Sequence record: MT932213.1
DNA: 64,000 bases
Source: Escherichia phage VEc74
Reading direction: 5' to 3' (one strand)
This document shows positions 1-61,622 of the stretch, one piece after another. The first letter of the stretch is position 1, and each line of letters begins with the position of its first letter. The notes under the pieces were generated by a model that had not been told where the DNA came from, did not search any database, and was given only the letters and a program-made list of their open reading frames with translations. Both the position numbers and the translations under genes were made by a program.

Positions 1-218
1 CTGCCCAGTACTTACAGGGAATTAAAGCTCTCGGTGGAATTTATGAATATCGTGTAGTTTGCGATACAACAAATAATACTCCGTCAGTAATTGATAGAAA
101 TGAGTTTGTTGCAACATTCTACATCCAACCGGCTCGTAGTATAAATTATATCCAACTTAATTTCGTCGCAACTGCTACTGGTGCAGATTTTGATGAGTTA
201 ACTGGTCTTGCAGGTTAA
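1..218 (+). CDS. 18: Tail sheath protein gp18, C-terminal fragment (5' end outside window)
   Basis: In-frame translation ends ...YIQPARSINYIQLNFVATATGADFDELTGLAG then TAA at 216-218; matches remembered T4 gp18 C-terminus and synteny upstream of gene 19. Confidence 0.8.
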   Translation, partial: AQYLQGIKALGGIYEYRVVCDTTNNTPSVIDRNEFVATFYIQPARSINYIQLNFVATATGADFDELTGLAG

Positions 219-23120: not shown

Positions 23121-25177
23121 TACATTTTGAACTTTTTAGACATTCCGTTGATGTTAACCAAAGAAGCTAAGATTTGAGAAACTTCGTTTTCCTCTTCTTT
23201 TGATTCTTCTACAAGGAATTGATTAAATCCAACCATTGGACGAACTTCACCAGTTTCCATTAGATGGTCGCCATCATATACTGATTCTTCTAATTGTTCA
23301 GAAGGAGGAACGATTGTACCTTCGATTAGATACTTGTTATAAGCCGTTTCTTTCATAAAGTACGTACTTACTTTATTAATCTTCAGTAAAATTCCACGAG
23401 GTAGAATAACTTCAGCTTCTGATGGAAATCCTGATAAATGACCTGGAACGATAACTTTGATTCGCTCAGCTCCTTTAATTACCATACCCACGCTAGTTTC
23501 AGCATCTTCATTGGCATATGTAGAATGACTACCCATATGCATCAAATGTTCTGCATCAACGGAACCTTCTCCTTCACCAGAAAATACTGCGCCGGAATCA
23601 TCTAGAGCCATATAGTTTTTACCATGCTCACCGAAGATATTTGGTTTAAGCGATGTCGATACGAAGTTCTTGAAATAGAACATTTTGTTTTCAATGTTAT
23701 GACGCAAAGTTTTAAAGGTAACTTCTTGTCCACGGTAAAGTGTAGTTCCTGGAGGAAGAACTGAACCTTTAGCGAATGCAGAATCCAACGTCTCGATGTG
23801 CTTAATAGCTCGTTCCATATATTCTTCACGGGTAGAATCTGGTTTACCCAAAAGGAACGAGTTCATTTCAACATATGAATCTGCACAATAATCTTCAATT
23901 ACATCAGACTCAGCCTGAGTCAGTCCTTTTGGAGTTACTTCAGTACTTGCATATTCATATGCCTGAGCAGCAGATTCATTAATCAATTTATAAATGCCAT
24001 TCATGACAAATTGAATAATAGCTGTCTTTTCATCTGGCGTAGCATTAGAACCTTTAACCAAATCATTGATAATTTTCTTAATAACATCAAAGCTATTAGA
24101 AATATTAATGTCAGCAAGATCGCTTAAAATTTTATCAGTTTTATAATCAAAGAATTCTTTATTCTTTAAATATTCTTGAGAACCTTGATATGTTATATCG
24201 CTTTGCAACTTGATAGATGGATCACGTAAACGTGCATGGGCTAATGCAATATGATTTCGGAAGTTTTCTAGTTCATAATCGCTAGATTTAAAACGAGAAG
24301 CACTTCTCATACCACCAATAGCTCCTTTGTTGAAGTTTGAACCAATCTGAATAACGCCAGAGTTCATTGGTCCTTCTGCTTTATATACCGGAACTTTAGA
24401 TTCAAACTCTTGATATTTCTTAGCAGCGAAGCTATCACCCTGAAGTGAAGCATCAACAGTAGAATATTGAGCTTGTGCTGCTAATCGACGACTAATTTTA
24501 GTTTTCTGAATAACAGCTTGATCCGTGCGCTTATCATTTTCTAAAGCAATAGAAGCAGCAACAGCGACAGCTTTAGGAACAGCATTACCTGTTTTAACGT
24601 CTACATAAACATCACCGACCTTTGATTCAACTTTTGTGAATAACTCAGTTGAAATAGGAGGTACACCTGGAATGTCTTCTAAATTGGCATTTTTACGGTA
24701 AACCATAATATATGCGTACTTTTTATCATAGTCCCAGATTTCCTTTAAAAGAACATATCGACCTGCTCCTTTAGTACGTACTAAACGGTCAGCAATAACT
24801 TGCATTTGACGAGCTGCGCCATTTGTTTTACTTTTTAGTACGCGGAATAAGCATGCGTCGATTTTATACTGCTTCATTGTTTGAAGAGCAGTATCAAAAA
24901 CCGCATTAATGACGCCAATTGGATTTCCACCCAAGTTTCTAAGCTTAACCAGCGATAATTTCTCGTTGACGCCTATCATTACGATATGCATCATTTTGTC
25001 GCCTGGCTTAACGTTTTTATTTGTATCACCGCCAGAGGTGTATGTACAAAATCTAAATCCAGGAAGCACACTTTCTTCGCCGGCTTGAATAGCAAAAATT
25101 TGTGGTATTTTATGCTTAGGATTTAAGTTAACAACCGGCGCCGAAGCGCCGTCAAATAATTCTGTAATAAGTTCCAT
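23120..25177 (-). CDS. Alt-family mono-ADP-ribosyltransferase paralog (copy 1)
   Basis: 685 aa; N-terminus MELITELFDGASAPVVNLNPKHKIPQIFAIQ parallels adjacent Alt; ART motifs present (R in TLYRGQ, STS in FVSTSL, acidic EAEVILPRG). Confidence 0.8.
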   Translation of the reverse strand: MELITELFDGASAPVVNLNPKHKIPQIFAIQAGEESVLPGFRFCTYTSGGDTNKNVKPGDKMMHIVMIGVNEKLSLVKLRNLGGNPIGVINAVFDTALQTMKQYKIDACLFRVLKSKTNGAARQMQVIADRLVRTKGAGRYVLLKEIWDYDKKYAYIMVYRKNANLEDIPGVPPISTELFTKVESKVGDVYVDVKTGNAVPKAVAVAASIALENDKRTDQAVIQKTKISRRLAAQAQYSTVDASLQGDSFAAKKYQEFESKVPVYKAEGPMNSGVIQIGSNFNKGAIGGMRSASRFKSSDYELENFRNHIALAHARLRDPSIKLQSDITYQGSQEYLKNKEFFDYKTDKILSDLADINISNSFDVIKKIINDLVKGSNATPDEKTAIIQFVMNGIYKLINESAAQAYEYASTEVTPKGLTQAESDVIEDYCADSYVEMNSFLLGKPDSTREEYMERAIKHIETLDSAFAKGSVLPPGTTLYRGQEVTFKTLRHNIENKMFYFKNFVSTSLKPNIFGEHGKNYMALDDSGAVFSGEGEGSVDAEHLMHMGSHSTYANEDAETSVGMVIKGAERIKVIVPGHLSGFPSEAEVILPRGILLKINKVSTYFMKETAYNKYLIEGTIVPPSEQLEESVYDGDHLMETGEVRPMVGFNQFLVEESKEEENEVSQILASLVNINGMSKKFKM

Positions 25178-25180
25178 GAT

Positions 25181-27271
25181 TTATCCTTGAACGAACTTGT
25201 AAGGCATGTTTGTAATATCTATGCAAGACGCAATAATTCCAAGAGATGATTCTACTTTCTGTTTAACATTTGATGAAACAAATGATGCAAAGTCAACTCT
25301 ATCTTCTATATCACCTGTCATTGTAACCAATTCACCAGTTTCCATTAAATGGTCTCCGTCATAGATTACCGATTCAGTGAGTTCTTCTGTGGTCATAACT
25401 TCAGCTTGAATGAGTTTTGTATTATTAGACGTGGTTCCGTCATTATTAGAAGCATCAATTATTTTATTAACTTTGACCATCAATCCGCGCGGTAGAATAA
25501 CTTCAGCTTCTGTTGCTATTCCGAGACTTCCTGGATATACAACATTAACTTTATGAGCTCCATCAATTGCCCATCCTATTTGAACTTTAACGTATTCAGG
25601 ATTTTCTTTATACGCTCTTATTTCGTTTGGATTAATAGTTATTCCTTCTTCATTTTTATCAACTGTTAATTCATTACGAGCTTCTGGTTCTAAAAGACCA
25701 ATACCAGCATGTGTAATTCCAAAACGTCCAAAAATGATAGGAGTTAAAGAAGTAGATACAAAATTTCTGAAATAGAACACTTTATTTTTAACTAGTGCTT
25801 CGTATATAGGAGCAGTCATACTTTGAGCACGATAAACTGTAATGCCTTCCGGTATGCGGTCACCATTTTCAAAAGCTGAATCTAAATTATTTATAGCAGA
25901 TTCAATTTCTTTTTCACTCATTACATCATATCGTTCTGGATTGTAACGACCTAAAAGAAGATTATTAATGTCTGTATATCCTGAACCGCAATATTCTCTA
26001 ATGCCACGCTTTTGTGATGGAGTATATTTAGAACCATCACGGGCAATAGTAATATCAATCATTGGACCAGCACCAATTCCAGAAAAGCTATAAATCATTC
26101 GTTTGAGGAATTTAGTTTTTGCTGCATTCCAGGCATTTTTAGTTATTTCTCCCCAGACTTCATCTGGCTGCCCTTTACGAGTTTTATTATGTTTATCAAG
26201 CCAATTATCTTTATATTCTTCAAAGAGTTGATTAACAGCTGCTGCGTATTTCTCTAAACATTTTATTGAAGTAGTTGGTTCATTTTTAATCGCATTAAGA
26301 ATTACATCTTTAATTTTTTCAGAAACTTCATCAACCTCACTTTTTGAAAAGAATTTATATTCATAGTGAAGTTCATTTGCAGTTCCTTCAGCAATAATTT
26401 TTGCTGCCTTAGTTTTAGAAGCTAATGAATTAATTCCAAGCTTCATTTCTTCTGCTTCGGGAATTAAAGGAGCAGTAGCAGGTTTATTAAAATTAGCTGC
26501 GGTAGATTCATACTTCTGGAATAATTCACTTTCAAATCTAGAAGATTCTAATGATTGACTTTGCGCAATTGCTCTACGGGAAATTTTAACTTTAACGATT
26601 ACAGCTTGATCAGAACGTTTATCATTTTCTTGCGCAATAGATGCTGCAATTGCCTCATTTTTAGTTACTTGAGCTCCAGTATCTTTATTGATATAAACAT
26701 CACCGACCTTCGATTCAACTTTAGTAAAGAGTTCGGTACTAATTTCCGGAACTCCTGGAATGTCTTCTAGTGATACATTTTTGCGATGTATAAGAATATA
26801 TGCATACTTTTTATCATAATCCCAGAGTTCCTTAAGAAGGACGTATCTGCCACCTGAACGACTACGGATAAGTCTATCAGCAATAACTTGAATTTGTCGA
26901 GCTTGACCAGCAGTTTTAGACTTAAGAATACGGAGCATACAAGCATCAATTTTATATTGACGCATTGTTTGCATTGCAACAGTAAAAACTGAATTGATAT
27001 AATTAATTGGACTTGGACCAAGACCTTTCAATTTAGCAATTGAACCTTTAGCAGTTAATGTAAAAGGAACAATATGCATCATTTTATCGCCCATCTTTAA
27101 ATCACGATTAGTATCACCTCCAGATGTATAGGTACATAAACGAAAGCCTGGTTGTTCAATTGCATCATCAACGTGAACTGAAAAAATTTGCGGTATTTTC
27201 TTCTTTGGATTTAAGTTTGTAATCGGAAGAGTAGTATCTTCGTCAAATAATTCTGTAATGAGTTCCATCAT
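25181..27271 (-). CDS. alt: Alt mono-ADP-ribosyltransferase (virion-packaged, modifies host RNA polymerase)
   Basis: 696 aa; ART motifs (TVYRAQ, FVSTSL, EAEVILPRG); adjacent to ligase gene 30 as T4 alt; minus-strand late-promoter motif ~20 nt upstream. Confidence 0.85.
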   Translation of the reverse strand: MMELITELFDEDTTLPITNLNPKKKIPQIFSVHVDDAIEQPGFRLCTYTSGGDTNRDLKMGDKMMHIVPFTLTAKGSIAKLKGLGPSPINYINSVFTVAMQTMRQYKIDACMLRILKSKTAGQARQIQVIADRLIRSRSGGRYVLLKELWDYDKKYAYILIHRKNVSLEDIPGVPEISTELFTKVESKVGDVYINKDTGAQVTKNEAIAASIAQENDKRSDQAVIVKVKISRRAIAQSQSLESSRFESELFQKYESTAANFNKPATAPLIPEAEEMKLGINSLASKTKAAKIIAEGTANELHYEYKFFSKSEVDEVSEKIKDVILNAIKNEPTTSIKCLEKYAAAVNQLFEEYKDNWLDKHNKTRKGQPDEVWGEITKNAWNAAKTKFLKRMIYSFSGIGAGPMIDITIARDGSKYTPSQKRGIREYCGSGYTDINNLLLGRYNPERYDVMSEKEIESAINNLDSAFENGDRIPEGITVYRAQSMTAPIYEALVKNKVFYFRNFVSTSLTPIIFGRFGITHAGIGLLEPEARNELTVDKNEEGITINPNEIRAYKENPEYVKVQIGWAIDGAHKVNVVYPGSLGIATEAEVILPRGLMVKVNKIIDASNNDGTTSNNTKLIQAEVMTTEELTESVIYDGDHLMETGELVTMTGDIEDRVDFASFVSSNVKQKVESSLGIIASCIDITNMPYKFVQG

Positions 27272-47811: not shown

Positions 47812-48720
47812 TTAAAGGTCATTCAAAAGGTCATCCAGGTCCGTGTCATCAGCACTAGATGAACTGCCAGAGCTTGAGCTCATAAAATCATCTTCAGTTT
47901 TTGTTTTGAAGTCATCAACATTGAATGCATCCAAATCATCAGCAACTTTATCAGCTTTCTTAGCGGCAGTTGCTGCGGCACCACCCATAGCAGCAGTTCC
48001 CATAACTTGACTGAACTTAGTGCTCAGTTCTTCAAACGATTTGAATTTATCTTTAGAAGTCATTTCAGAAAGGTCAACCATTTGTTCGAACAGTTCTTTC
48101 TGGAAAGATTCATCATCAATGTTTGGAATCGCAGATTGATTCAGGAATTTAGATTCATCGTAGTTACTAAAACCAGAAACTTGTTTAACTTTCAGTACAA
48201 AGTTAGCACCTTCCCACGGACAAGTTACATCAACTGGAGTTTCACCCATTTCAACATCAACCGCAATCATTGCATTGATTTTATCCCAGATTTTCTTACC
48301 GAAACGGTATTTAAATACTTTACCTTCGTTTTCTGGAGCAGCTGGGTCTTTTACAACAAGAATATTAGCCCAGTAAGAAGTTTTACGTTTAACAAGACTG
48401 TACTCTTTATTGTCAGTGTTGTACAGATCATTTTTACTAATGTATTGACATACTGGGCAAGAATCGTAATCACCGTGGGTAGATGAACAATTTTCGATAT
48501 ACCATTTACCGTTTTTCTTGAAACCGTGATTTACAAGAATTGCGAATGGTGCTTGTTCATCATTTTTAGACGGAAGAAAACGAATTACTGCTTGACCGTT
48601 ACCCGCATTGTCGAGTTTCAGTTTCCACTCGCCTTTATCTTCAGAAGAAAAACCACCTTTATTTCCAGCCAGTTTAGCCATTTGTGCAGCGAGTTCAGCA
48701 GTAGATTTACGTTTAAACAT
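47812..48720 (-). CDS. 32: Single-stranded DNA-binding protein gp32
   Basis: 302-aa [55 protein letters not shown]... matches T4 gp32. Confidence 0.97.
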
Positions 48721-48819: not shown

Positions 48820-49473
48820 TTAATACTTGCAAGATTTCACAGTTTCAATGAAAACATTTTTAGCTTTCTGTGAATCAATATTTAAAATTTTTCTATAAGC
48901 CTTTAACTTTATAGAATAATTATTCCAGACTAAATTATCAGTCTGTTCATCATGTTTATCAATTATATTTAAAAATGAATCAAGCAAGATAAACGTCTCA
49001 AACGAAATTATGTTCGATTGCAGAAGTTTAAAAATATAACTTGATTGAACTTTTGGATTATACTCAAAAATTTCTTTAAAAGCAGAAACTTCAACTTTTT
49101 TACTAAAATAATAAATGTTGCGAATATCTTCTTCAAACTTAAATTTAATTTGCTTTAAGCGTCCGATATATTCACGATAAAACACAAGTGCATCAGCGTC
49201 AGAGATGTCACCAATCCAAGCATCTTGGTTAGCAACAAGATTGCTTATAAAGATTAAAGCAAGTTCCTTTAATTTATATTTTTCTGATAACTTCTGGAAA
49301 AAATACTTATCCCTTCGCTTTTGATAAGCGGCATCAGACACCCGCATGCACCAATTATACTTAATTACATCATACTTTCCATTCATATGTTGTTTTATCA
49401 TTAAGTATAATTTATAAACTGATTTACCATCAATGTATCTTTCACCACCAGCAGGCATGCGGAGTTTAATCAT
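48820..49473 (-). CDS. 59: Helicase loader gp59
   Basis: 217 aa, T4 size and synteny. Confidence 0.9.
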   Translation of the reverse strand: MIKLRMPAGGERYIDGKSVYKLYLMIKQHMNGKYDVIKYNWCMRVSDAAYQKRRDKYFFQKLSEKYKLKELALIFISNLVANQDAWIGDISDADALVFYREYIGRLKQIKFKFEEDIRNIYYFSKKVEVSAFKEIFEYNPKVQSSYIFKLLQSNIISFETFILLDSFLNIIDKHDEQTDNLVWNNYSIKLKAYRKILNIDSQKAKNVFIETVKSCKY

Positions 49474-50063: not shown

Positions 50064-50981
50064 TCAAAATTCATTAATGCTATTAGTTAATTTAGAAAGA
50101 CCCGCTTTTACAAAATATGAATAAATTTTGCCACGCGGTGGTAATTTATATGAATTATAGTAATTCACAATGTTTGAAGCAATATTATCAGGAATATAAT
50201 CAAAATCAATTAGAACTAAATTTTCTTTATAACGATTATATTCAGATTCTGTGAGAAGCACCTTAGCTTGCTCACGGTCATTAGCAATAGCTTCAACGAT
50301 TGAAGTTTTCATTGAAGGAGTTCGTTCACCTTCAACTCTGGTAAACCAAAAGTCAGATCGTACTTTAACTGAAGCAACGTTATCCTTTTTGTCGCCTTTA
50401 AGAATTTTAGTCATACAGTCAATTTCAGCAGAACCGCTTTTAATTTTAACCCATTTCTTATGCATCGGAGACCATTGCTTAACATTTGGATATTTGTGAA
50501 GCTGTGTAAAGTCACCATCAGATGAAATGATTAAAATTTTATGTCCTTCTAAAGAGAACTTTTTAACAAGAACAGCAATGTGGTCATCTGCTTCATACTT
50601 ATCAATATCCATAACAATGTATGGCATATAAGCTTTTAATTCATCTATAACTTTATGGCTGGATTCAAAATAACCTTCCCAGTCCCAAGTAGATTCTTCT
50701 CGCGCTTTTCCACGGTTTTTCTTATAGTAATAAGCGAAATCACGACGCCAGTATCCAGATTTCGCGTTATCAATACACAGTACAATTTTAGTGTATCCAA
50801 GCGTTTTTGCTTTTTTGACATTAAACTTAATTGAGTTCAATATCAAATGACGAACCATTGATAAATTAATTTTTTCTTTATCTGGGAAGTTTACAAGAGC
50901 AGTTGAAAGCGCAATTTGACTAAAGTCAATAAAGCAAATTCCTTCTTTGTAGTCTTCATCCAGCATCATTTCTAAATCCAT
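50064..50981 (-). CDS. rnh: RNase H (5'-3' exonuclease / flap endonuclease)
   Basis: MDLEMMLDEDYKEGICFIDFSQIALSTALVN...; 305 aa from internal Met. Confidence 0.92.
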   Translation of the reverse strand: MDLEMMLDEDYKEGICFIDFSQIALSTALVNFPDKEKINLSMVRHLILNSIKFNVKKAKTLGYTKIVLCIDNAKSGYWRRDFAYYYKKNRGKAREESTWDWEGYFESSHKVIDELKAYMPYIVMDIDKYEADDHIAVLVKKFSLEGHKILIISSDGDFTQLHKYPNVKQWSPMHKKWVKIKSGSAEIDCMTKILKGDKKDNVASVKVRSDFWFTRVEGERTPSMKTSIVEAIANDREQAKVLLTESEYNRYKENLVLIDFDYIPDNIASNIVNYYNSYKLPPRGKIYSYFVKAGLSKLTNSINEF

Positions 50982-51043
50982 ATGAACCTCGTTCAATTAG
51001 TGAGATTTCTATTATATACCATCCAAATCTTAAAGTAAACAAG

Positions 51044-51051
51044 TATAAATA
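51044..51051 (+). promoter_or_regulatory. T4 late promoter motif TATAAATA (gene 34)
   Basis: Exact consensus ~35 nt upstream of gene 34 ATG. Confidence 0.6.
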
Positions 51052-51085
51052 CTTATTATTGAAAACACAATAGGAGCCCGGGAGA

Positions 51086-54000
51086 ATGGCCGAGATTAAA
51101 AGAAAGTTCAGAGCAGAAGATGGTCTGGACGCAGGTGGTGATAAAATAATCAACGTAGCTTTAGCTGATCGTGCCGTAGGAACTGACGGCGTTAACGTTG
51201 ATTACTTAATTCAAGAAAACACAGTTCAACAATATGATCCAACTCGTGGATATTTAAAAGATTTTGTAATCATTTATGATAACCGCTTTTGGGCTGCTAT
51301 AAATGATATTCCAAAACCAGCAGGAGCTTTTAATAGCGTACGATGGAGAGCGTTACGTACTGATGCAAACTGGACAACTGTTTCATCAGGACCTTATCAA
51401 TTAAAGTCAGGCGAATCAATTTCAGTTGATACTGCAGCCGGTAATGACATTACATTTACTTTACCATCTTCCCCAATTGATGGAGATACTATCGTTCTCC
51501 AAGATATTGGAGGAAAACCTGGAGTTAATCAAGTTTTAATTACAGCACCGGTACAAAGCATTGTAAATTTTAGAGGTCAGCAAGTACGTTCAGTACTAAT
51601 GACTCATCCAAAATCACAGATAGTTTTAATTTTTAGTAATCGTCTGTGGCAAATGTATGTCGCTGATTATAGTAGAGAAGCTGTAGTTGTAACGCCTGCG
51701 AGTCTCTATCAGGCGCAATCAAACGATTTTATCGTACGTAGATTTACTTCTGCTTCAGCAATTAATATTAAACTTCCAAGATTTGCCAATCATGGCGATA
51801 TTATTAATTTCGTTGATTTGGATAAATTAAATCCTCTTTATCACACAATTGTTACTACATATGATGAAACAACTTCAGTACAAGAAGTTGGAACTCATTC
51901 CATTGAAGGTCGTACATCGATTGACGGTTTCTTGATGTTTGATGATAATGAGAAATTGTGGAGATTGCTTGACGGGGATAGTAAAGCACGTTTACGCATT
52001 ATAACAACTAATTCTAATATTCGTCCAAATGAAGAAGTTATGGTATTTGGTGCGAATAACGGAACAGCTCAGACAATTGAACTTCAGCTTCCGACTGATA
52101 TTTCTGTTGGTGATACTGTCAAAATTTCCATGAATTACATGAGAAAAGGACAAACGGTTAAAATCAAAGCTGCAGGTGAAGATAAAATTGCTTCTTCAGT
52201 TCAATTACTGCAATTCCCAAAACGCTCAGAATATCCACCTGAAGCTGAATGGGTTACAGTTCAAGAATTAGTTTTTAATGGTGAAACTAATTATGTTCCA
52301 GTTTTGGAGCTTGCTTATATAGAAGATTCTGATGGAAAATACTGGGTTGTACAGCAAAACGTTCCAACCGTAGAAAGAGTAGATTCTTTAAATGATTCTA
52401 CTAGAGCAAGATTAGGCGTAATTGCTTTAGCGACACAAGCTCAAGCTAATGTCGATTTAGAAAATTCTCCACAAAAAGAATTAGCAATTACTCCAGAAAC
52501 ATTAGCTAACCGTACTGCTACAGAAACTCGTAGAGGTATCGCAAGAATAGCAACTACTGCTCAAGTTAACCAGGATACTACATTCTCTTTTGCTGATGAC
52601 CTTATCATTACTCCTAAAAAGCTGAATGAAAGAACGGCTACTGAAACTCGTAGAGGTGTTGCTGAAATTGCTACGCAGCAAGAAACTAATACAGGAACCG
52701 ATGATACTACAATCATTACTCCTAAAAAGCTTCAAGCTCGTCAAGGTTCTGAATCATTATCTGGTATTGTAACCTTTGTATCTACTGCAGGTGCTACTCC
52801 AGCTTCTAGCCGTGAATTAAATGGTACGAATGTTTATAATAAAAACACTAATAATTTAGTTGTTTCGCCTAAAGCTTTGGATCAGTATAAAGCTACTCCA
52901 ACGCAGCAAGGTGCAGTAATTTTAGCAGTTGAAAGTGAAGTAATTGCTGGACAAAGTCAGGAAGGATGGGCAAATGCGGTTGTAACGCCAGAAACGTTAC
53001 ATAAAAAGACATCAACTGATGGAAGAATTGGTTTAATTGAAATTGCTACGCAAAGTGAAGTTAATACAGGAACTGATTATACTCGTGCAGTCACTCCTAA
53101 AACTTTAAATGATCGTAGAGCAACTGAAAGTTTAAGTGGTATAGCTGAAATTGCTACACAAGTTGAATTCGACGCAGGCGTCGACGATACTCGTATCTCT
53201 ACACCATTAAAAATTAAAACTAGATTTAATAGTACTGATCGTACTTCTGTTGTTGCTCTATCTGGATTAGTTGAATCAGGAACTCTCTGGGACCATTATA
53301 CCCTTAATATTCTTGAAGCAAATGAGACACAGCGTGGTACACTTCGTGTAGCTACACAGGTCGAAGCTGCTGCAGGAACACTAGATAATGTTTTAATAAC
53401 TCCTAAAAAGCTTTTAGGTACTAAATCTACCGAATCGCAAGAAGGTGTTATTAAAGTTGCAACTCAGTCTGAAGCTGTGGCTGGAACGTCAGCAAATACT
53501 GCTATATCTCCAAAAAATTTAAAATGGATTGTGCAGAGTGAACCTACCTGGGCAGCTACTACTACGATAAGGGGATTTGTTAAAACTTCATCTGGTTCAA
53601 TTACGTTCGTTGGTAATGATACAGCTGGTTCTACCCAAGATTTAGAACTGTATGAGAAAAATAGCTATGCAGTATCACCATATGAATTAAACCGTGTATT
53701 AGCAAATTATTTGCCGTTAAAAGCAAAAGCTGTAGATAGTAATTTATTGGATGGTCTAGATTCATCTCAGTTCATTCGTAGGGATATTGCACAGACGGTT
53801 AATGGTTCACTAACCTTAACCCAACAAACGAATCTGAGTGCCCCTCTTGTATCATCTAGTACTGGTGAATTTGGTGGTTCATTGGCCGCTAATAGAACAT
53901 TTACCATCCGTAATACAGGAGCCCCGACTAGTATCGTTTTCGAAAAAGGTCCTGCATCCGGGGCAAATCCTGCACAGTCAATGAGTATTCGTGTATGGGG

Positions 54001-54955
54001 TAACCAATTTGGCGGCGGTAGTGATACAACACGTTCGACAGTGTTTGAAGTTGGCGATGACACATCTCATCACTTTTATTCTCAACGTAATAAAGACGGT
54101 AATATAGCGTTTAACATTAATGGTACTGTAATGCCAATAAATGTTAATGCTTCAGGAACATTGAATGCAAATGGTGTAGCAACATTTGGTAATTCAGTCA
54201 CTGCAACTGGTGAAATTATTTCTCGAAGCGCAAATGCTTTCCGTGCTATTAACGGAAATTATGGTTTCATTGTTCGCAATGATGGACCAGTAACGAATTT
54301 TATGCTTACTGCATCGGGTGATCAGACTGGCGGATTTAATGGATTGCGTCCTTTAGCTATCAATAATGCATCTGGTCAAGTAACGATTGGTGAAAGCTTA
54401 ATTATTGCCAAAGGTGCTACTATAAATTCAGGCGGTTTGACTGTTAACTCGAGAATTCGTTCTCAGGGTACTAAAACATCTGATTTATACACCCGCGCTC
54501 CAACATCTGACACAGTAGGATTCTGGTCAATTGATATTAACGATTCAGCCACTTATAATCAATTCCCTGGTTATTTTAAAATGGTTGAAAAAACTAATGA
54601 AGTGACTGGACTTCCATATTTAGAACGTGGCGAAGAAGTTAAATCTCCTGGTACATTGACTCAGTTTGGTAACACACTTGATTCGCTTTACCAAGATTGG
54701 ATTACTTATCCAACGACCCCAGAAGCGCGCACCACTCGCTGGACACGTACATGGCAGAAAACCAAAAACTCTTGGTCAAGTTTTGTTCAGGTATTTGACG
54801 GAGGTAACCCTCCTCAGCCATCTGATATCGGTGCTTTACCATCTGATAATGCTATAATGGGTAATCTTACTATTCGTGATTTCTTACGAATTGGTAATGT
54901 TCGCATTGTTCCTGACCCAGTGAATAAAACGGTTAAATTTGAATGGGTTGAATAA
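51086..54955 (+). CDS. 34: Long tail fibre proximal subunit gp34
   Basis: 1289 aa, T4 gp34 size; internal repeated T-E-T-R-R-G-I-A-x-I-A-T motifs; late promoter upstream. Confidence 0.95.
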   Translation: MAEIKRKFRAEDGLDAGGDKIINVALADRAVGTDGVNVDYLIQENTVQQYDPTRGYLKDFVIIYDNRFWAAINDIPKPAGAFNSVRWRALRTDANWTTVSSGPYQLKSGESISVDTAAGNDITFTLPSSPIDGDTIVLQDIGGKPGVNQVLITAPVQSIVNFRGQQVRSVLMTHPKSQIVLIFSNRLWQMYVADYSREAVVVTPASLYQAQSNDFIVRRFTSASAINIKLPRFANHGDIINFVDLDKLNPLYHTIVTTYDETTSVQEVGTHSIEGRTSIDGFLMFDDNEKLWRLLDGDSKARLRIITTNSNIRPNEEVMVFGANNGTAQTIELQLPTDISVGDTVKISMNYMRKGQTVKIKAAGEDKIASSVQLLQFPKRSEYPPEAEWVTVQELVFNGETNYVPVLELAYIEDSDGKYWVVQQNVPTVERVDSLNDSTRARLGVIALATQAQANVDLENSPQKELAITPETLANRTATETRRGIARIATTAQVNQDTTFSFADDLIITPKKLNERTATETRRGVAEIATQQETNTGTDDTTIITPKKLQARQGSESLSGIVTFVSTAGATPASSRELNGTNVYNKNTNNLVVSPKALDQYKATPTQQGAVILAVESEVIAGQSQEGWANAVVTPETLHKKTSTDGRIGLIEIATQSEVNTGTDYTRAVTPKTLNDRRATESLSGIAEIATQVEFDAGVDDTRISTPLKIKTRFNSTDRTSVVALSGLVESGTLWDHYTLNILEANETQRGTLRVATQVEAAAGTLDNVLITPKKLLGTKSTESQEGVIKVATQSEAVAGTSANTAISPKNLKWIVQSEPTWAATTTIRGFVKTSSGSITFVGNDTAGSTQDLELYEKNSYAVSPYELNRVLANYLPLKAKAVDSNLLDGLDSSQFIRRDIAQTVNGSLTLTQQTNLSAPLVSSSTGEFGGSLAANRTFTIRNTGAPTSIVFEKGPASGANPAQSMSIRVWGNQFGGGSDTTRSTVFEVGDDTSHHFYSQRNKDGNIAFNINGTVMPINVNASGTLNANGVATFGNSVTATGEIISRSANAFRAINGNYGFIVRNDGPVTNFMLTASGDQTGGFNGLRPLAINNASGQVTIGESLIIAKGATINSGGLTVNSRIRSQGTKTSDLYTRAPTSDTVGFWSIDINDSATYNQFPGYFKMVEKTNEVTGLPYLERGEEVKSPGTLTQFGNTLDSLYQDWITYPTTPEARTTRWTRTWQKTKNSWSSFVQVFDGGNPPQPSDIGALPSDNAIMGNLTIRDFLRIGNVRIVPDPVNKTVKFEWVE

Positions 54956-54963
54956 GAGGTATT

Positions 54964-56082
54964 ATGGAAAAATTTATGGCAGAGTTTGGACAAGGATATG
55001 TCCAAACGCCATTTTTATCGGAAAGCAATTCAGTAAGATACAAAATAAGTATAGCGGGTTCTTGCCCGCTTTCTACTGCAGGACCACCATATGTTAAATT
55101 TCAGGATAATCCTGTAGGAAGTCAAACATTTAGCGCAGGCCTTCATTTAAGAGTTTTTGACCCTTCCACCGGAGCATTAGTTGATAGTAAGTCATATGCT
55201 TTTTCGACTTCAAATGATACTACATCTGCTGCCTTTGTTAGTTTCATGAATTCTATTTCAAGCAATAGACTTGTTGCTATATTAACTAGCGGAAAGGTTA
55301 ATTTTCCTCCTGAAGTAGTATCTTGGTTAAGAACAGCAGGAACGTCTGCTTTTCCATCTGACTCTGTATTGTCAAGATTTGATGTATCATATGCTGCTTT
55401 TTACACTTCTTCTAAAAGAGCTATCGCATTAGAGCATGTTAAACTGAGCAACAGAAAAAGCACGGATGATTATCAAACTATTTTAGATGTTGTATTTGAC
55501 AGTTTAGAAGACGTCGGAGCTACCGGGTTTCCAAGAAGAACATATGAAAGCGTTGAGCAGTTTATGTCAGCTGTTGGTGGAACTAATAACGAAATTGCAC
55601 GTCTACCAACTTCATCCGCGATAAGTAAACTTTCTGACTACAATTTAATTCCTGGCGATGTTCTTTATCTTAAAGCACAACTATATGCTGATGAAGATTT
55701 ACTCGCTCTTGGAACTACGAATATATCTATTAGATTTTATAATGAATCGGATGGATATATTTCTTCAACACACGCTGAGTTTACTGGTCAAGCTGGGTCA
55801 TGGGAATTAAAGGAAGACTATGTAGTTGTTCCTGAAAATGCAGTAGGATTTACGATATATGCACAAAGAACTGCACAAGCAGGTCAAGGTGGCATGAGGA
55901 ATTTAAGTTTTTCTGAAGTATCAAGAAATGGCGGAATTTCAAAACCTACAGAATTTGGCGTCAATGGTATTCGAGTTAATTATGTCTGTGAATCTGCTTC
56001 ACCTCCAGATATAATGGTACTTCCTACACAAGCATCGTCTAAAACTGGTAAAGTGTTTGGACAAGAATTTAGAGAAGTATAA
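54964..56082 (+). CDS. 35: Long tail fibre hinge protein gp35
   Basis: 372 aa, T4 size and synteny. Confidence 0.9.
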   Translation: MEKFMAEFGQGYVQTPFLSESNSVRYKISIAGSCPLSTAGPPYVKFQDNPVGSQTFSAGLHLRVFDPSTGALVDSKSYAFSTSNDTTSAAFVSFMNSISSNRLVAILTSGKVNFPPEVVSWLRTAGTSAFPSDSVLSRFDVSYAAFYTSSKRAIALEHVKLSNRKSTDDYQTILDVVFDSLEDVGATGFPRRTYESVEQFMSAVGGTNNEIARLPTSSAISKLSDYNLIPGDVLYLKAQLYADEDLLALGTTNISIRFYNESDGYISSTHAEFTGQAGSWELKEDYVVVPENAVGFTIYAQRTAQAGQGGMRNLSFSEVSRNGGISKPTEFGVNGIRVNYVCESASPPDIMVLPTQASSKTGKVFGQEFREV

Positions 56083-56087
56083 ATTGA

Positions 56088-56105
56088 GGGAGCCTTCGGG
56101 TTCCC
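56088..56105 (+). terminator. Hairpin GGGAGCC-UUCG-GGUUCCC plus U-tract after gene 35
   Basis: 7-bp stem with one G-U pair, followed by TTTTTCTTT. Confidence 0.6.
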
Positions 56106-56113
56106 TTTTTCTT

Positions 56114-56121
56114 TATAAATA
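56114..56121 (+). promoter_or_regulatory. T4 late promoter motif TATAAATA (gene 36)
   Basis: Exact consensus ~24 nt upstream of gene 36 ATG. Confidence 0.6.
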
Positions 56122-56144
56122 CTATTAAAATAAAGGGGCATACA

Positions 56145-56810
56145 ATGGCTGATTTAAAAGTAGGTTCAACAACTGGAGGCTCTGTCATTTGGCATCAAGG
56201 AAATTTTCCATTGAATCCAGCCGGTGACGATGTACTCTATAAATCATTTAAAATATATTCAGAATATAATAAACCACAAGCTGATGATAACGATTTCGTT
56301 TCTAAAGCTAATGGTGGTACTTATGCATCAAAGGTAACATTTAACGCTGGCATTCAAGTCCCATATGCTCCAAACATCATGAGCCCATGCGGTATTTATG
56401 GGGGTAACGGTGATAATGCTACTTTTGATACAGCAAATATCGATATTGTTTCATGGTATGGCGTAGGATTTAAATCGTCATTTGGTACAACAGGCCGAAC
56501 TGTTGTAATTAATACACGCAATGGTGATATTAATACAAAAGGTACAGTGACTGCATCAAAACAAGTAAGAAGCGATGCGGCTGCTCCTATAGCAGCGAAT
56601 GACCTTACTAGAAAGGACTATGTTGATGGAGCAATAAATACTGTTACTGCAAATGCAAACTCTAGGGTGCTACGGTCTGGTGACACCATGACAGGTAATT
56701 TAACAGCGCCAAACTTTTTCTCGCAGAATCCTGCGTCTCAACCTTCACATGTTCCACGATTTGACCAAATCGTAATTAAGGATTCTGTTCAAGATTTCGG
56801 CTATTATTAA
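56145..56810 (+). CDS. 36: Long tail fibre distal connector gp36
   Basis: 221 aa, late promoter upstream. Confidence 0.9.
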   Translation: MADLKVGSTTGGSVIWHQGNFPLNPAGDDVLYKSFKIYSEYNKPQADDNDFVSKANGGTYASKVTFNAGIQVPYAPNIMSPCGIYGGNGDNATFDTANIDIVSWYGVGFKSSFGTTGRTVVINTRNGDINTKGTVTASKQVRSDAAAPIAANDLTRKDYVDGAINTVTANANSRVLRSGDTMTGNLTAPNFFSQNPASQPSHVPRFDQIVIKDSVQDFGYY

Positions 56811-56818
56811 GAGGACTT

Positions 56819-59800
56819 ATGGCTACTTTAAAACAAATACAATTTAAAAGAAGCAAAACTGCAGGAGCACGTCCTGCCGCTTCAGTATTAGCCGAAGGTG
56901 AATTGGCTATAAACTTAAAAGACCGTGTACTTTTTACTAAAGATGACCAAGGAAATATTATTGATCTGGGTTTTGCTAAAGGCGGTAGTATTGACGGGAA
57001 TGTTATTCATATAGGAAACTATAACCAAACTGGTGATTATACTTTAAATGGCGCATTAACTCAGACAGGTAATTTTAATTTAACTGGTATTGCTCGAGTA
57101 ACTCGCGATATTATTGCCGCTGGGCAGATTATGACTGAAGGCGGTGAACTTATTACAAAAAGTTCAGGTACAGCACATGTTCGTTTTTTCGATGGCAATA
57201 GTCGCGAACGTGGAATCATTTATGCCCCGGCTAATGATGGTTTAACTACACAAGTACTTAATATCAGGGTTCAAGACTATGCCGCTGGTAGCGAAAGCAC
57301 TTATGCATTTTCAGGCAGTGGCCTATTTACTTCACCTGAAGTATCAGCATGGAAATCTATTTCGTCTCCACAAATTCTGACCGATAAAGTTATTACAAAT
57401 GGGAAGAAGACAGGCGATTATGATATCTATTCATTATCAAATAACACTCCAATGGCAGAAGGCGAAACGGCTATTAACCACCTCCGTGTTATGCGAAATG
57501 CTGTAGGAGCAGGTATTTTCCACGAAGTTAATGTTAATGACGGAATAACCTGGTATTCCGGAGATGGCTTAGACACTTATCTTTGGTCGTTTAACTGGGC
57601 CGGTGGATTGAAAGCGGGTCGTTCTATTGCTGTTGGCCTTCCTCACGGTTCTAAAAATTATTCAGAAATGGGCACGGCTTCTATTGCTTTAGGAGATAAT
57701 GATACCGGATTTAAATGGCATCAGGATGGATATTATTTCAGCGTCAATAATGGAACGAAAACATTTTTATTTAGTCCTAGTGAAACAACTAGTCTAAGAA
57801 AATTTGTAGCTGGATATTCTACTAACGGAACCGATTTAACGACTCCTCCAACTGAAAACTATGCTCTTGCTACTGTCGTGACATATCACGATAATAACGC
57901 GTTTGGAGATGGTCAGACTCTTTTAGGATATTATCAAGGCGGTAATTATCATCACTATTTCCGCGGTAAAGGTACTACAAACATTAATACTCACGGCGGT
58001 TTGTTAGTTACTCCAGGTAATATTGATGTTATTGGCGGTTCTGTTAATATTGATGGTAGAAATAATGCTTCTACACTGATGTTTAGAGGTAACACGACCG
58101 GAGCTAGTTCAGTTGATAATATGACAATTTCTGTGTGGGGCAATACGTTTACTAATCCTAGTGTAGGTGATCGTAAAAACGTCATGGAAATTTCTGATGC
58201 AACTAGTTGGATGAGCTATATTCAAAGACTTACAACAGGTGAAGTAGAAATGAACGTTAACGGTTCATTTGAATCATCTGGTGTTACTGCTGGAAATAGA
58301 GGAGTTCACACAACGGGCGAAATTTCATCTGGGGCTGTGAATGCACTTCGTATTTGGAATGCAGATTATGGAGCCATTTTTAGACGTTCAGAAGGAAGTC
58401 TTCATATTATTCCAACTGCTTATGGTGAAGGCAAAAATGGTGATATCGGTCCACTTCGTCCGTTTAGTATGGCTTTAGATACCGGTAAAGTTACTATTCC
58501 AGATTTACAATCAAGTTACAATACGTTTGCTGCTAACGGTTATATTAAATTTGTTGGTCATGGAGCAGGTGCCGGCGGTTATGACATTCAATATGCTCAA
58601 GCAGCTCCCATTTTCCAGGAAATCGATGATGATGCCGTAAGTAAATATTACCCAATTGTTAAGCAAAAATACCTTCAAGGTAAAGCTGTTTGGTCTTTAG
58701 GTACTGAAATTAATTCGGGAACATTTGTTTTACACCATATCAAAGAAGATGGTTCACAAGGCCATACATCAAGATTTAACGCTGACGGTACAGTTAACTT
58801 CCCGGATAACGTTCAGGTCGGTGGTGGTGAAGCTACTATTGCTCGTAATGGTAATATTTTCTCGGATATTTGGAAATCGTTTACTTCTGCCGGTGATACT
58901 ACAAATATTCGCGATGCTATTGCGACTCGTGTTTCGAAAGAAGGCGACACGATGACCGGTAAGTTGACTTTATCTGCTGGAGATGATGCCCTTGTTTTAA
59001 CTGCAGGCGTGGGTGCTTCATCACACATCCGTAGTGATGTAGGTGGTATAGGTAACTGGTATATAGGCAAAGGCGGCGGCGACAATGGTCTAGGTTTTTA
59101 CAGTTACATTACACAAGGCGGTGTATACATAACAAATAACGGCGAAATAGCGCTTTCTCCTCAAGGTCAAGGAACATTTAATTTTAATAGAGACCGCCTT
59201 CATATAAACGGTACACAATGGACTGCGCACCAGGCCGGCGATTGGGGAAATCAATGGCGCCAGGAAGCTCCTGTATTTGTGGATTTTGGTAATGTTGGTA
59301 ATGATAGTTATTATCCTATTATTAAAGGAAAATCTGGTATTACTAATGAAGGTTATATATCTGGTGTAGATTTTGGTATGCGCCGTATCACTAATACATG
59401 GGCCCAAGCTATTATCCGTGTTGGTAACCAGGAAAACGGTCATGACCCACAAGCTGTCTACGAATTCCACCACAATGGAGTTATGTATGCTCCTAACATG
59501 GTTAAAACTGGAGCAAGATTATCAGCTGGCGGTGGTGACCCGGTATGGACTGGGCCATGTCTTGTTATTGGTGATAATGATACTGGATTAGTTCATGGTG
59601 GTGATGGACGAATTAACATGGTTGCAAATGGAGTGCATATTGCTTCATGGTCAGCTGCTTATCAGATCCATGAAGGTCTTTGGGATTCAACTGGTGCTTT
59701 ATGGACTGAAACAGGAAGAGCTATTATTTCTTATGGGCATTTAGTCCAACAAAGTGATGCCTATTCCACATATGTTCGAGATGTTTATGTCCGTTCTGAT

Positions 59801-60130
59801 ATTCGTGTTAAAAAAGACCTTGTTAAATTTGAAAATGCTTCTGAGAAACTTTCCAAAATTAATGGTTACACTTATATGCAGAAGCGAGGCCTAGATGAAG
59901 AAGGCAATCAGAAATGGGAACCTAACGCCGGTTTAATTGCTCAAGAAGTTCAAGCTATTTTACCAGAATTAGTTGAAGGCGACCCGGATGGTGAAGCTTT
60001 ACTTCGTTTGAACTATAACGGTGTAATTGGTTTAAATACAGCTGCAATCAATGAGCATACCGCAGAAATTGCAGAACTTAAGTCAGAGATTGAAGAACTT
60101 AAAGCATTAGTTAAATCATTGTTAAAATAA
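56819..60130 (+). CDS. 37: Long tail fibre distal subunit gp37 (T2/T6-type with C-terminal coiled-coil extension)
   Basis: 1103 aa; gp36-like N-terminus, tail-fibre repeat body; C-terminus ...[26 protein letters not shown]. Confidence 0.9.
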
Positions 60131-60135
60131 TAAGA

Positions 60136-60149
60136 GGGGCTTCGGCCCC
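60136..60149 (+). terminator. GGGGC-UUCG-GCCCC hairpin between genes 37 and 38
   Basis: Perfect stem directly after gp37 stop and just upstream of the gp38 SD. Confidence 0.45.
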
Positions 60150-60161
60150 TTGGAGGTTTAT

Positions 60162-60935
60162 ATGGCAGTTGAAGGACCGTGGGTAGGATGGTCTGCAAGG
60201 GTACAGACTGGAGACCCTTGGATGGCAGGAGCAGCCGTAAGATTAAGAATGGGTGTTCCATTTTGGATGAGTAATATGATAGGTCGATCTGTTGAAGTAA
60301 TTCACACGCTTGGAGCAGACCATAACTTCAATGGTCAGTGGTTCCGAGATAGATGTTTTGAGGCAGGTAGTACACCTATAGTGTTTAATATCACTGGAGA
60401 TTTAGTATCATATTCTAAAGATGTTCCTTTATTCTTCATGTACGGAGATACACCGAATGAATATGTTCAACTGAATATACATGGTGTAACGATGTATGGC
60501 CGTGGCGGGAATGGCGGTAGCAATAGTCCTGGCTCAGCTGGGGGTCATTGTATTCAAAATGATATTGGCGGGAGACTAAGAATTAATAATGGCGGAGCTA
60601 TTGCTGGAGGCGGCGGAGGCGGTGGCGGCGGTAACAGGGGTAGACTAGTATTTGGTGGTGGCGGTGGTCGCCCATTCGGTAGTGGCGGGTCTTCCTCTCA
60701 TATGAGTGCTGGTGCAACCGCCGGCACTATTTACGCTCCGGGTGCAGGATCTGTCGGTGAGGGGTCTCTTAGTGCATATACAGGCGGGAATGGCGGTGAA
60801 GTTGGCTCCGCAGGAGGTAGATGTAATACTCACGGTACCGGTGCAGAATATGACGGCGGCGCTGGTGGTTATGCCGTCATAGGGTCTGCTCCAACGTGGA
60901 TAAATGTTGGAGCAATATATGGTCCAAGAGTATAA
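60162..60935 (+). CDS. 38: Receptor-recognising adhesin gp38 (T2-type, glycine-rich motifs)
   Basis: ~257 aa from ATG at 60162 (GGAGG SD); poly-Gly stretches [12 protein letters not shown] and [12 protein letters not shown] typical of T2-type adhesins rather than the T4 gp38 chaperone. Confidence 0.8.
60590..60690 (+). repeat. Imperfect GGN triplet repeats encoding poly-glycine in gp38
   Basis: ggaggcggcggaggcggtggcggcggt... and ggtggtggcggtggt... Confidence 0.7.
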
Positions 60936-60965
60936 TTTGAATAAATATCCTTAAAAGGAGGGTCT

Positions 60966-61622
60966 ATGGCAGCACCTAGAATATCATTTTCGCCCTCTGA
61001 TATTCTGTTGGGTGTTCTAGATCGCTTGTTCAAAGATAACGCTACCGGGAAAGTTCTTGCTTCCCGGGTAGCTGTCGTAATTCTTTTATTTATGATGGCG
61101 ATTGTTTGGTATAGGGGAGATAGTTTCTTTGAGTACTATAAGCAATCAAAGTATGAAACATACAGTGAAATTATTGAAAAGGAAAGAAATGCACGCTTTG
61201 AATCTGTCGCCCTGGAACAACTCCAGATAGTTCATATATCATCTGAGGCAGACTTTAGTGCGGTGTATTCTTTCCGCCCTAAAAACTTAAACTATTTTGT
61301 CGATATTATAGCATATGAAGGAAGATTACCTTCAACAATAACAGAAAAATCACTTGGAGGATATCCTGTTGATAAAACTATGGATGAATATACGGTTCAT
61401 TTAAATGGACGTCATTATTATTCCAACTCAAAATTTGCTTTTTTACCAACTAAAAAGCCTACTCCCGAAATAAACTACATGTATAGTTGTCCATATTTTA
61501 ATTTGGATAATATCTATGCTGGAACGATAACCATGTACTGGTATAGAAATGATCATATAAGTAATGACCGCCTTGAATCAATATGTGCTCAGGCGGCCAG
61601 AATATTAGGAAGGGCTAAATAA
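60966..61622 (+). CDS. t: Holin T
   Basis: 218 aa, MAAPRISFSPSDILLGVLDRLFKDNATGKVLASRVAVVILLFMMAIVWY... single TMD plus large periplasmic domain; matches T4 T. Confidence 0.95.
   Translation: MAAPRISFSPSDILLGVLDRLFKDNATGKVLASRVAVVILLFMMAIVWYRGDSFFEYYKQSKYETYSEIIEKERNARFESVALEQLQIVHISSEADFSAVYSFRPKNLNYFVDIIAYEGRLPSTITEKSLGGYPVDKTMDEYTVHLNGRHYYSNSKFAFLPTKKPTPEINYMYSCPYFNLDNIYAGTITMYWYRNDHISNDRLESICAQAARILGRAK

Follow-up and report, generated by a model that had tools for sequence, protein, structure and literature searches.

The distal long-tail-fibre module of Escherichia phage VEc74: an S74-ending gp37, a gp38 adhesin and predicted adsorption to OmpA

Positions 56819-60935 of the Escherichia phage VEc74 sequence (MT932213.1; the window is the whole 64,000-nucleotide stretch analysed) most probably constitute a Tequatrovirus distal long-tail-fibre module, a reading to which we assign a probability of about 90%. 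It comprises a gp37 that ends in an S74 chaperone and a gp38 adhesin expected to cap it, with adsorption to OmpA predicted. The two genes are adjacent, with the g37 stop at 60130 and the g38 start at 60162 (Table 1). In the list of open reading frames g38 begins at a TTG at 60150 (261 aa); we place the true start at the ATG at 60162 (257 aa), because a GGAGG Shine-Dalgarno sequence at 60152-60156 precedes it and all homologues begin MAV. Neither g37 nor g38 is a chance open reading frame, as indicated by Pfam matches to GP38 (7e-69), Gp38_N (2e-19) and Peptidase_S74 (1e-12), and the deposited VEc74 annotation lists the three proteins, identical in sequence, as QOI68427-9, with gp37 as QOI68428.1, labelled a tail fibre protein, and gp38 as QOI68429.1, already labelled 'tail fiber adhesin'. 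An earlier note on this DNA had pointed out that the products of genes 34, 35 and 36 have T4 sizes and those of the next two genes do not, and the lengths bear this out: 1289, 372 and 221 aa each equal the T4 value, and gp37 and gp38 measure 1103 and 257 aa compared with 1026 and 183 aa in T4. The exact match to the late promoter consensus is taken to correspond to the late promoter that precedes gene 36 in T4, and a g36-g37-g38 late transcript presumably begins there; the locus is not enriched in sigma-70 promoter hits (35, compared with 35.2 expected). The hairpin between g37 and g38 folds at -15.8 kcal/mol, a modest gain over shuffled sequences (z = -1.9), and in G2133 the same hairpin position is annotated as a terminator.

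Table 1. Positions of genes, protein domains and other elements in and around the VEc74 distal fibre module.
Feature	Position	Strand	Description
T4-type late promoter consensus TATAAATA	56114..56121	+	exact match, upstream of g36
g36	56145..56810	+	hinge/distal connector, 221 aa, T4-type allele
Crossover interval, T4-type (g36) to Ac3-type (g37)	56757..56858	+	from informative-site run analysis
g37	56819..60130	+	distal subunit of the long tail fibre, 1103 aa, in the size class of Ac3, AR1 and G2133
gp37 residues 449-550	58163..58468	+	shaft module resembling the gp34 C-terminal trimerisation domain
gp37 residues 914-992	59558..59794	+	fibre tip, triangular/interdigitated beta-helix
gp37 residues 993-1103	59795..60127	+	Peptidase_S74 intramolecular chaperone and C-terminal coiled-coil tail
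UUCG-tetraloop hairpin	60134..60151	+	between g37 and g38, adjoining the g38 ribosome-binding site
g38	60162..60935	+	receptor-recognising adhesin (by homology), 257 aa
gp38 residues 1-40	60162..60281	+	attachment domain with W7, W20 and W35; Pfam Gp38_N
gp38 residues 113-241	60498..60884	+	polyglycine-II sandwich, five glycine-rich motifs (GRMs) and four hypervariable segments (HVSs)
gp38 GRMs			GRM1 113-118, GRM2 144-157, GRM3 165-176, GRM4 208-219, GRM5 232-241 (residues)
gp38 HVSs			HVS1 119-143, HVS2 158-164, HVS3 177-207, HVS4 220-231 (residues)
Gene t (holin)	60966..61622	+	conserved right-hand flank; Pfam Phage_holin_T 1e-116

The family of gp38 is evident from profile, structure and motif alike. 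Its Pfam scores are 232 bits for PF05268 (GP38) and 69.6 bits for PF21721 (Gp38_N), with a cut-off of 25 for each, and against the PDB it matches 9V85 at 1.5e-79 and 6F45_D at 1.2e-52. The AF2 model (pLDDT 89.9) superposes on PP01 gp38 (9V85) with a Foldseek TM of 0.88 and an rmsd of 2.1, its PDB matches are gp38 structures only (6F45_D at E = 3e-20), and it displays the beta-helix and polyglycine-II sandwich by which adhesin gp38 is recognised. The poly-glycine stretches remarked on in the earlier note correspond to G149-G157 and G165-G169 and fall within the five GRMs and four HVSs that we located; residues 113-241 are 39% glycine, with a local G+C of 0.53 compared with about 0.35. Furthermore, W7, W20 and W35 are invariant across 14 aligned adhesins including that of S16, in the structure of which three tryptophans plug gp38 into the gp37 trimer (PMC6851490). 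These features place gp38 in the receptor-recognising adhesin family of T2/T6/S16, and by homology it would be present in virions.

The partner protein gp37 shares 94.5% amino-acid identity with UoN_LDJ77_1, 92% with G2133, 91% with AR1 and 84% with Ac3, and 36% with T4 gp37 (over residues 1-640 only) and 34% with T2 gp37; beside these pairwise values, a search among about 15 billion proteins returned none that reaches 90% identity. The gene is internally mosaic, a patchwork of Ac3-, UoN- and AR1-like pieces in which identity to Ac3, G2133 and UoN_LDJ77_1 ranges from 69% to 100% by segment. The gp34-like shaft module matches Pfam Gp34_trimer (2e-8) and the PDB gp34 fragments 4UXE and 5NXF (about 1e-12). 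Residues 914-1103 match 6F45 chain A, the S16 gp37 tip (phmmer 8.6e-44), and in S16 it is this beta-helix tip that carries gp38 (PMC6851490). Membership of the S74 family follows from a PF13884 match over residues 993-1052 (1e-12, 48.5 bits, cut-off 22) together with a Ser...Lys dyad (S-D-x-R-x-K) at the domain start, where Ser993/Lys998 (SDIRVK) aligns with SDRRIK in S16 gp37, SDERLK in the phage fibre 8JOV and the MYRF domain. By homology, the chaperone would be expected to release itself from the mature fibre by autoproteolysis.

On the molecular level, gp37 would form the trimeric distal half-fibre, the conserved N-terminus of which joins gp36. Its last 111 residues would drive folding of the trimer, and the S74 chaperone would then cut itself off at Ser993, with Lys998 acting as the base. 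One copy of gp38 would cap the gp37 trimer (a probable 3:1 stoichiometry), with W7, W20 and W35 of its N-terminal helical bundle filling three equivalent pockets at the gp37 tip. The glycine-rich motifs would pack as a polyglycine-II sandwich, leaving the hypervariable loops between them to contact the outer-membrane protein. As the loop set is that of the 'type 2' OmpA-binding adhesins (FL12, EV240), reversible adsorption to OmpA is predicted.

Known phages resemble this module to different extents. The nearest, Ac3 (AF060870 / OK040907), G2133 and UoN_LDJ77_1, have the same 1103 and 257 aa sizes and the same gene order g36-g37-g38-t, with 91-93% nucleotide identity over the module, 93-96% identical gp38 and shared HVS1-3, but differ in HVS4 by 1-3 residues and possess their own g36, a 218-aa allele that is 80% identical in amino acids. 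The OmpC binders PP01 and AR1 (9V85) have a gp37 of the same 1103-aa class and a gp38 that is 90% identical in the N-terminal and beta-helix parts, whereas their hypervariable loops bear no relation to those of VEc74 (57% identity in the receptor-binding region), and the receptors are accordingly taken to differ. Conversely, EV240 (T4_ev240) and FL12 resemble VEc74 in the receptor-binding region and differ in the N-terminal attachment domain of their 259-aa protein, a T2/T6-like variant (77% identical) that suggests a gp37 partner unlike that of VEc74. Salmonella phage S16 (6F45) shares the architecture, a trimeric gp37 tip with an S74 chaperone and a monomeric gp38 with three-tryptophan attachment, beta-helix and polyglycine-II sandwich (PMC6851490), but belongs to another genus, infects another host and is about 50% identical. 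T2 has the same protein families and gene order but a gp37 of 1341 aa and a gp38 of 262 aa (48% identical) with other HVSs, and its receptors are OmpF/FadL (PMC3157838). The label 'T2-type' in the earlier note is therefore apt for the broad class only, since the module itself is of the Ac3/AR1/G2133 class. T4 is colinear with VEc74 in the flanks (g34-g36 and t) and over the initial ~170 nt of g37, and its gp37 shaft is distantly homologous, but T4 gp37 has its own receptor-binding needle and T4 gp38 is an unrelated chaperone not found in virions (PMC3157838).

OmpA is predicted as the VEc74 receptor because the receptor-binding region is 95% identical to those of the OmpA-dependent phages EV240 and FL12. 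From GRM1 to the C-terminus, identity is 95.2% to EV240, 94.5% to FL12, 88% to FL20 and 85% to FL18, followed by 77-78% to the Tsx types (T6, FL23) and 49% to T2. HVS1-3 are letter-identical to those of FL12 and HVS4 differs from FL12 RCNTHGAGTEYN at three residues; relative to EV240, V163 (HVS2) and A186 (HVS3) differ. The three adhesins share one 90% cluster, and by its HVSs gp38 groups with the OmpA 'type 2' subgroup (FL12/FL18/FL20/EV240). The receptor of EV240 was identified as OmpA/HepI by RB-TnSeq, and a Tsx phage that received the EV240 gp38 sequence from HVS2 onward changed to OmpA use (bioRxiv 10.64898/2026.04.02.716166); FL12, FL20 and FL18 are ompA-dependent (PMC12032242). Our literature search gave two hits, both unrelated, and no publication or experiment on VEc74, and the receptor of Ac3 was not found in the sections of PMC3157838 consulted.

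Two other readings of the adhesin bear on this prediction. If gp38 were a T4-type assembly chaperone, the gp37 tip itself would bind the receptor as in T4, and the position of the gp38 gene between g37 and t, as in T4, is the one point that agrees with this. BLASTP of gp38 with T4 gp38 gives E = 0.97 without a meaningful alignment, its matches to adhesin families and structures are strong, and gp37 lacks a T4 needle domain match and, as in S16, terminates in an S74 chaperone, so that we give this reading next to no credence and reject a T4-type or lambda Tfa chaperone as the identity of gp38; a Pfam scan of gp38 likewise found no chaperone-family match. The claim in the earlier note of an adhesin-type gp38 rather than a T4 chaperone thus stands. 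Given an adhesin, its substitutions private to VEc74 could mean that the same module recognises Tsx, another porin or both OmpA and LPS. The change T227A in HVS4 is private, A227 being absent from all 150 retrieved homologues, and one residue can change the receptor: the single HVS substitution Q206L switched OmpF to OmpW (bioRxiv 10.64898/2026.04.02.716166). Moreover, Tsx-binding adhesins are the closest relatives of the type 2 OmpA adhesins (PMC12032242), the receptor-binding region retains its 77-78% identity to T6 and FL23, and PMC3157838 describes Tsx and OmpA use as separated by few residues and reports composite requirements in RB32, PST and Mi. Against this, HVS1-3 are those of OmpA-dependent FL12, the EV240 gp38 so similar in this region was by itself sufficient to transfer OmpA specificity, and the 5-residue insertion seen in the Tsx types (YYSPF...) is missing from HVS2 (NRGRLVF), and we consider a receptor other than OmpA alone unlikely.

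The earlier note also proposed a modular swap in a T4-like backbone. There is indeed a block unlike T4 bounded exactly at the distal fibre: nucleotide colinearity with T4 extends to 56985 and is regained at 60941, 6 nt past the g38 stop, at 96.8% identity. The crossover interval covers the end of g36 and the opening 40 nt of g37, sequence that is conserved in all T-evens; T4-type informative sites extend from 56282 to 56756, mixed sites lie just upstream (55920-56127) and an isolated patch in g34 (53800-54000) is 100% identical to T4. The g36 product (Pfam Phage_T4_gp36, 2e-50) is 96% identical to T4 gp36. Over positions 1-51000 of the window, identity is 96.0% with T4 and 96.4% with G2133, G2133 giving the better coverage, and the closest genomes, RB27, RB3 and ZCEC14, carry adhesins. 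The backbone is that of a generic Tequatrovirus and is at least as close to adhesin-carrying relatives as to T4; a specifically T4 backbone is rejected, as identity to T4 and G2133 is equal and the nearest genomes are of the RB27/RB3 type. Nor is an unusual swap indicated, the adhesin arrangement being the majority state, and its direction is not readable from the sequence: the T4-type g36 and g34 patches may equally be imports. We therefore weigh the reverse exchange, in which an adhesin-carrying Ac3/G2133-like phage gained a T4-type g36 core and a 200-bp g34 piece by gene conversion instead of a T4-like phage taking up a g37-g38 cassette from elsewhere, as only a little short of an even chance. 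It would account for the shortness of the T4-type stretch, the mixed sites upstream, the second, T4-identical patch in g34, a remaining window that is at least as close to G2133 as to T4 and in gene content (coverage) favours G2133, and the adhesins of the nearest genomes. However, the sequence has no feature that would polarise the events, and several exchanges are superimposed, as the patchwork of g37 indicates.

The joining of a T4-type g36 to an Ac3-type g37 is the sole mildly unusual point of the locus. Among 50,697 phage genomes none covers 56145-57500 above 90.2%, and none of 27 loci in an IMG/VR gp36 scan combines a gp36 above 90% with a VEc74-type gp37. Across the IMG/VR loci, gp36, gp37 and gp38 types are freely combined. 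It is possible, though we regard it as rather doubtful, that the VEc74 fibre is an unrecorded natural chimera of a T4-type gp36 and gp34 patch, an Ac3-type gp37/gp38 and the T227A change. In other respects the module is common: adhesin gp38 occurs in 840 phage records and a T4-type gp38 or Tfa-like protein in 297 (207 of them at 60% identity or more), and the adhesin form is described as predominant in T-even phages (PMC6851490; PMC3157838). T-even phages usually have the arrangement seen in VEc74, and T4 is the exception.

Adhesins of the gp38 type, their glycine-rich and hypervariable design and g37-g38 recombination at conserved motifs have been described since the 1980s-90s, with solved structures following in 2018 and 2026; the biology of the VEc74 g37-g38 module is already known and ordinary. 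In practical terms it is of use only for predicting host range: on sequence alone VEc74 can be placed in the OmpA 'type 2' adhesin group, whose host range across OmpA variants is reported to be narrow. The locus is also an example of how finely mosaic the fibre genes of T-even phages are. If the chimeric features are functional, the gp36-gp37 joint would tolerate mixing of alleles from T4 and adhesin lineages, and the HVS4 change might alter which OmpA loop variants are recognised.

The long-tail-fibre genes of the window are set out in the table below. The products of g34, g35 and g36 have the same lengths as in T4, whereas those of g37 and g38 do not (1026 and 183 aa in T4), as the earlier note had stated. 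The mechanical start of g38 in the ORF list is TTG 60150 (ORF end 60935). Since ATG 60162 lies 5 nt downstream of a GGAGG and every gp38 homologue begins with MAV..., we set gp38 at 257 aa, in agreement with the length first proposed. The poly-glycine stretches reported for this protein are present (G149-157 and G165-169), and the local G+C is 0.53, compared with about 0.35.

Fibre genes (window nucleotides) and gp38 domains (residues)
Feature	Position	Strand	Basis
g34	51086-54955	+	ORF list, 1289 aa
g35	54964-56082	+	ORF list, 372 aa
g36	56145-56810	+	ORF list, 221 aa
g37	56819-60130	+	ORF list, 1103 aa
g38	60162-60935	+	ATG 60162, GGAGG 60152-60156, 257 aa
gene t	60966-61622	+	ORF list, 218 aa
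Attachment domain	1-40		alignment; W7, W20, W35 invariant
Beta-helix	about 45-112		alignment, motif search
GRM1	113-118		alignment, motif search
HVS1	119-143		alignment, motif search
GRM2	144-157		alignment, motif search
HVS2	158-164		alignment, motif search
GRM3	165-176		alignment, motif search
HVS3	177-207		alignment, motif search
GRM4	208-219		alignment, motif search
HVS4	220-231		alignment, motif search
GRM5	232-241		alignment, motif search
C-terminal strand	242-257		alignment, motif search

Both g34 and g36 are preceded by the T4 late-promoter consensus TATAAATA, at 51044 and 56114 respectively. GC-rich UUCG-tetraloop hairpins follow g35 (56086-56107, then a T-run) and g37 (60134-60151, adjoining the g38 Shine-Dalgarno sequence); terminators are annotated at both sites in phage G2133 and are putative here.

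As the note had claimed, gp38 is an adhesin and not the T4-type chaperone. It matches Pfam families GP38 (PF05268, 7e-69) and Gp38_N (PF21721, 2e-19) and the solved adhesins of PP01 (9V85, 1.5e-79) and S16 (6F45_D, 1.2e-52), whereas BLASTP against T4 gp38, the alignment named beforehand as contrary evidence, finds nothing (E = 0.97). An AlphaFold2 model built from 44 homologues (mean pLDDT 89.9) superimposes on 9V85_C with a TM-score of 0.88 and an rmsd of 2.1 Å, and a PDB structure search returned only the PP01 and S16 adhesins, the next match having E = 3. Alignment with 13 adhesins, S16 among them, and a motif search located the glycine-rich motifs (GRM1-GRM5) and hypervariable segments (HVS1-HVS4), as the note had proposed. 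In S16, three gp38 tryptophans fill three equivalent pockets of the gp37 trimer and the binding face is formed by loops joining polyglycine-II helices (PMC6851490); the OmpC contacts of PP01 gp38 have likewise been placed in loops between such helices (PMC12892980).

The tip of gp37 accords with this class, residues 914-1103 matching the S16 gp37 tip (8.6e-44). Residues 993-1052 match Peptidase_S74 (Pfam), the intramolecular chaperone known from endosialidases and tail fibres, and the aligned counterparts of S993-D-I-R-V-K998 are SDRRIK in S16 and SDERLK in another fibre. Residues 449-550 are akin to the gp34 trimerisation domain. By contrast, T4 gp37 shows distant similarity (36%) to residues 1-640 only, and the T4 needle tip has no match anywhere in the window gp37.

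To predict the receptor, we compared the region from GRM1 to the C-terminus with adhesins of known receptor. Identity is highest to the OmpA adhesins of EV240 (95.2%), FL12 (94.5%), FL20 (88%) and FL18 (85%), followed by those of FL23 and T6 (Tsx, 77-78%), M1 (OmpA, 69%), AR1 and PP01 (OmpC, 57%), the type 1 OmpA adhesins (53%) and T2 (OmpF/FadL, 49%). FL12 has the same HVS1, HVS2 and HVS3, letter for letter. Deletion of ompA blocks plating of FL12, FL18 and FL20, the narrow-host-range 'type 2' OmpA group (PMC12032242); EV240 was assigned OmpA/HepI by RB-TnSeq, and a Tsx phage given EV240 gp38 from HVS2 onward switches to OmpA (bioRxiv 10.64898/2026.04.02.716166). Together, these likenesses and the OmpA dependence of those phages predict OmpA as the receptor, with a probability of about 75-80%. 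The prediction is tempered by the capacity of single HVS substitutions to switch receptor (same preprint), by A227 in HVS4 (60819-60854, GTGAEYD), unique among 150 retrieved homologues, the others having T (GTGTEY or GAGTEY), and by the differences from EV240 at V163 and A186. FL18 (Mosigvirus), FL20 (Krischvirus) and FL12 (Tequatrovirus) share near-identical receptor-binding regions with different N-terminal attachment domains, a pattern that fits a GRM/HVS cassette exchanged separately from the part that binds gp37.

The earlier note had further described a modular swap into a T4-like backbone. Relative to T4 a swap is evident and sharply delimited, with colinearity running from 50277 to 56985 and resuming at 60941, 6 nt past the g38 stop; as a distinctive event it does not stand. 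At sites differing between T4 and Ac3 the window is T4-type over 56282-56756 and Ac3-type from 56859 on, which places a crossover in the conserved stretch at the end of g36 and start of g37. The T4 likeness is confined to local stretches: gp36 has 96% identity to its T4 counterpart and 80% to that of Ac3, and within g34 a 200-bp patch (53800-54000) matches T4 at 100%, against 75-79% for Ac3, UoN_LDJ77_1, T2, T6, AR1 and G2133. The preference reverses at 54200-54400 (75% to T4, 96-97% to Ac3, UoN_LDJ77_1, T6 and AR1), so that on these alignments the proximal fibre gene is mosaic on a fine scale. Within g37 the best match changes at intervals of a few hundred bases, being variously Ac3, UoN_LDJ77_1, AR1 or G2133. 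The locus thus has a finely mosaic structure, of a kind already described for T-even fibre genes, and does not reveal in which direction any one exchange ran. The backbone as a whole is not especially T4-like: over 1-51000, shared positions are 96.0% identical to T4 (90% coverage) and 96.4% to G2133 (95% coverage), and the best genome matches at 20-45 kb are ZCEC14, RB27, teqhal and RB3-RB10.

Elsewhere in the window, ORFs at the g32 (47812-48720) and g59 (48820-49473) positions, identified by location and 97-100% nucleotide identity to T6, are 100 nt apart, so that the homing endonuclease gene segG is absent, as in T6 and unlike T4, where it lies between them. Window 24001-26000 is 79% identical to T4 at 75% coverage, against 97.5% to G2133. 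In place of the alt gene and the fragments alt.-1 and alt.-2 of T4, G2133 carries two alt-like ADP-ribosyltransferase genes in tandem.

The proteins gp36, gp37 and gp38 are exactly QOI68427.1, QOI68428.1 and QOI68429.1 of Escherichia phage VEc74 (166,100-nt record), whose annotation already calls them hinge connector, tail fibers protein and tail fiber adhesin; a literature search found no publication on this phage. In the phage collection searched, from which VEc74 is absent, the module is nearest to UoN_LDJ77_1 (92.8% nucleotide identity), Ac3 (91.6%) and G2133 (90.8%), all with exactly 1103 and 257 aa; AR1 (88%) shares the gp37 length and has a gp38 of 259 aa instead. The label T2-type thus holds for the adhesin class, and an Ac3/AR1-class gp37 with an OmpA-type-2 gp38 describes the module better. 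The 90% clusters of gp36 and gp38 include members recorded under Enterococcus faecalis, Bacillus cereus, Salmonella enterica or Escherichia coli, in some cases on contigs of about 166 kb; the most likely explanation is T-even phage DNA that contaminated bacterial assemblies or was co-assembled with them.

The junction of T4-type g36 with Ac3-type g37 occurs in none of 50,697 phage records (best full-length match 90.2%) nor in 27 IMG/VR loci, gp37 forms a singleton when proteins are clustered at 90%, and distal g37 reaches no more than 92.6% identity to any sequence in the phage collection; junction and singleton are modest curiosities. Of the two gp38 types, the adhesin occurs in 840 phage records and the T4 type in 297, 90 of the latter being distant lambda-Tfa-like matches. 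According to Trojet et al. (PMC3157838), the T2/T6 adhesin predominates over the T4 version, and Dunne and Leiman likewise regard the adhesin form as predominant (PMC6851490). The module is what most T-even phages carry as their distal fibre, a standard and well-studied form, and the genome that holds it is already deposited and annotated.
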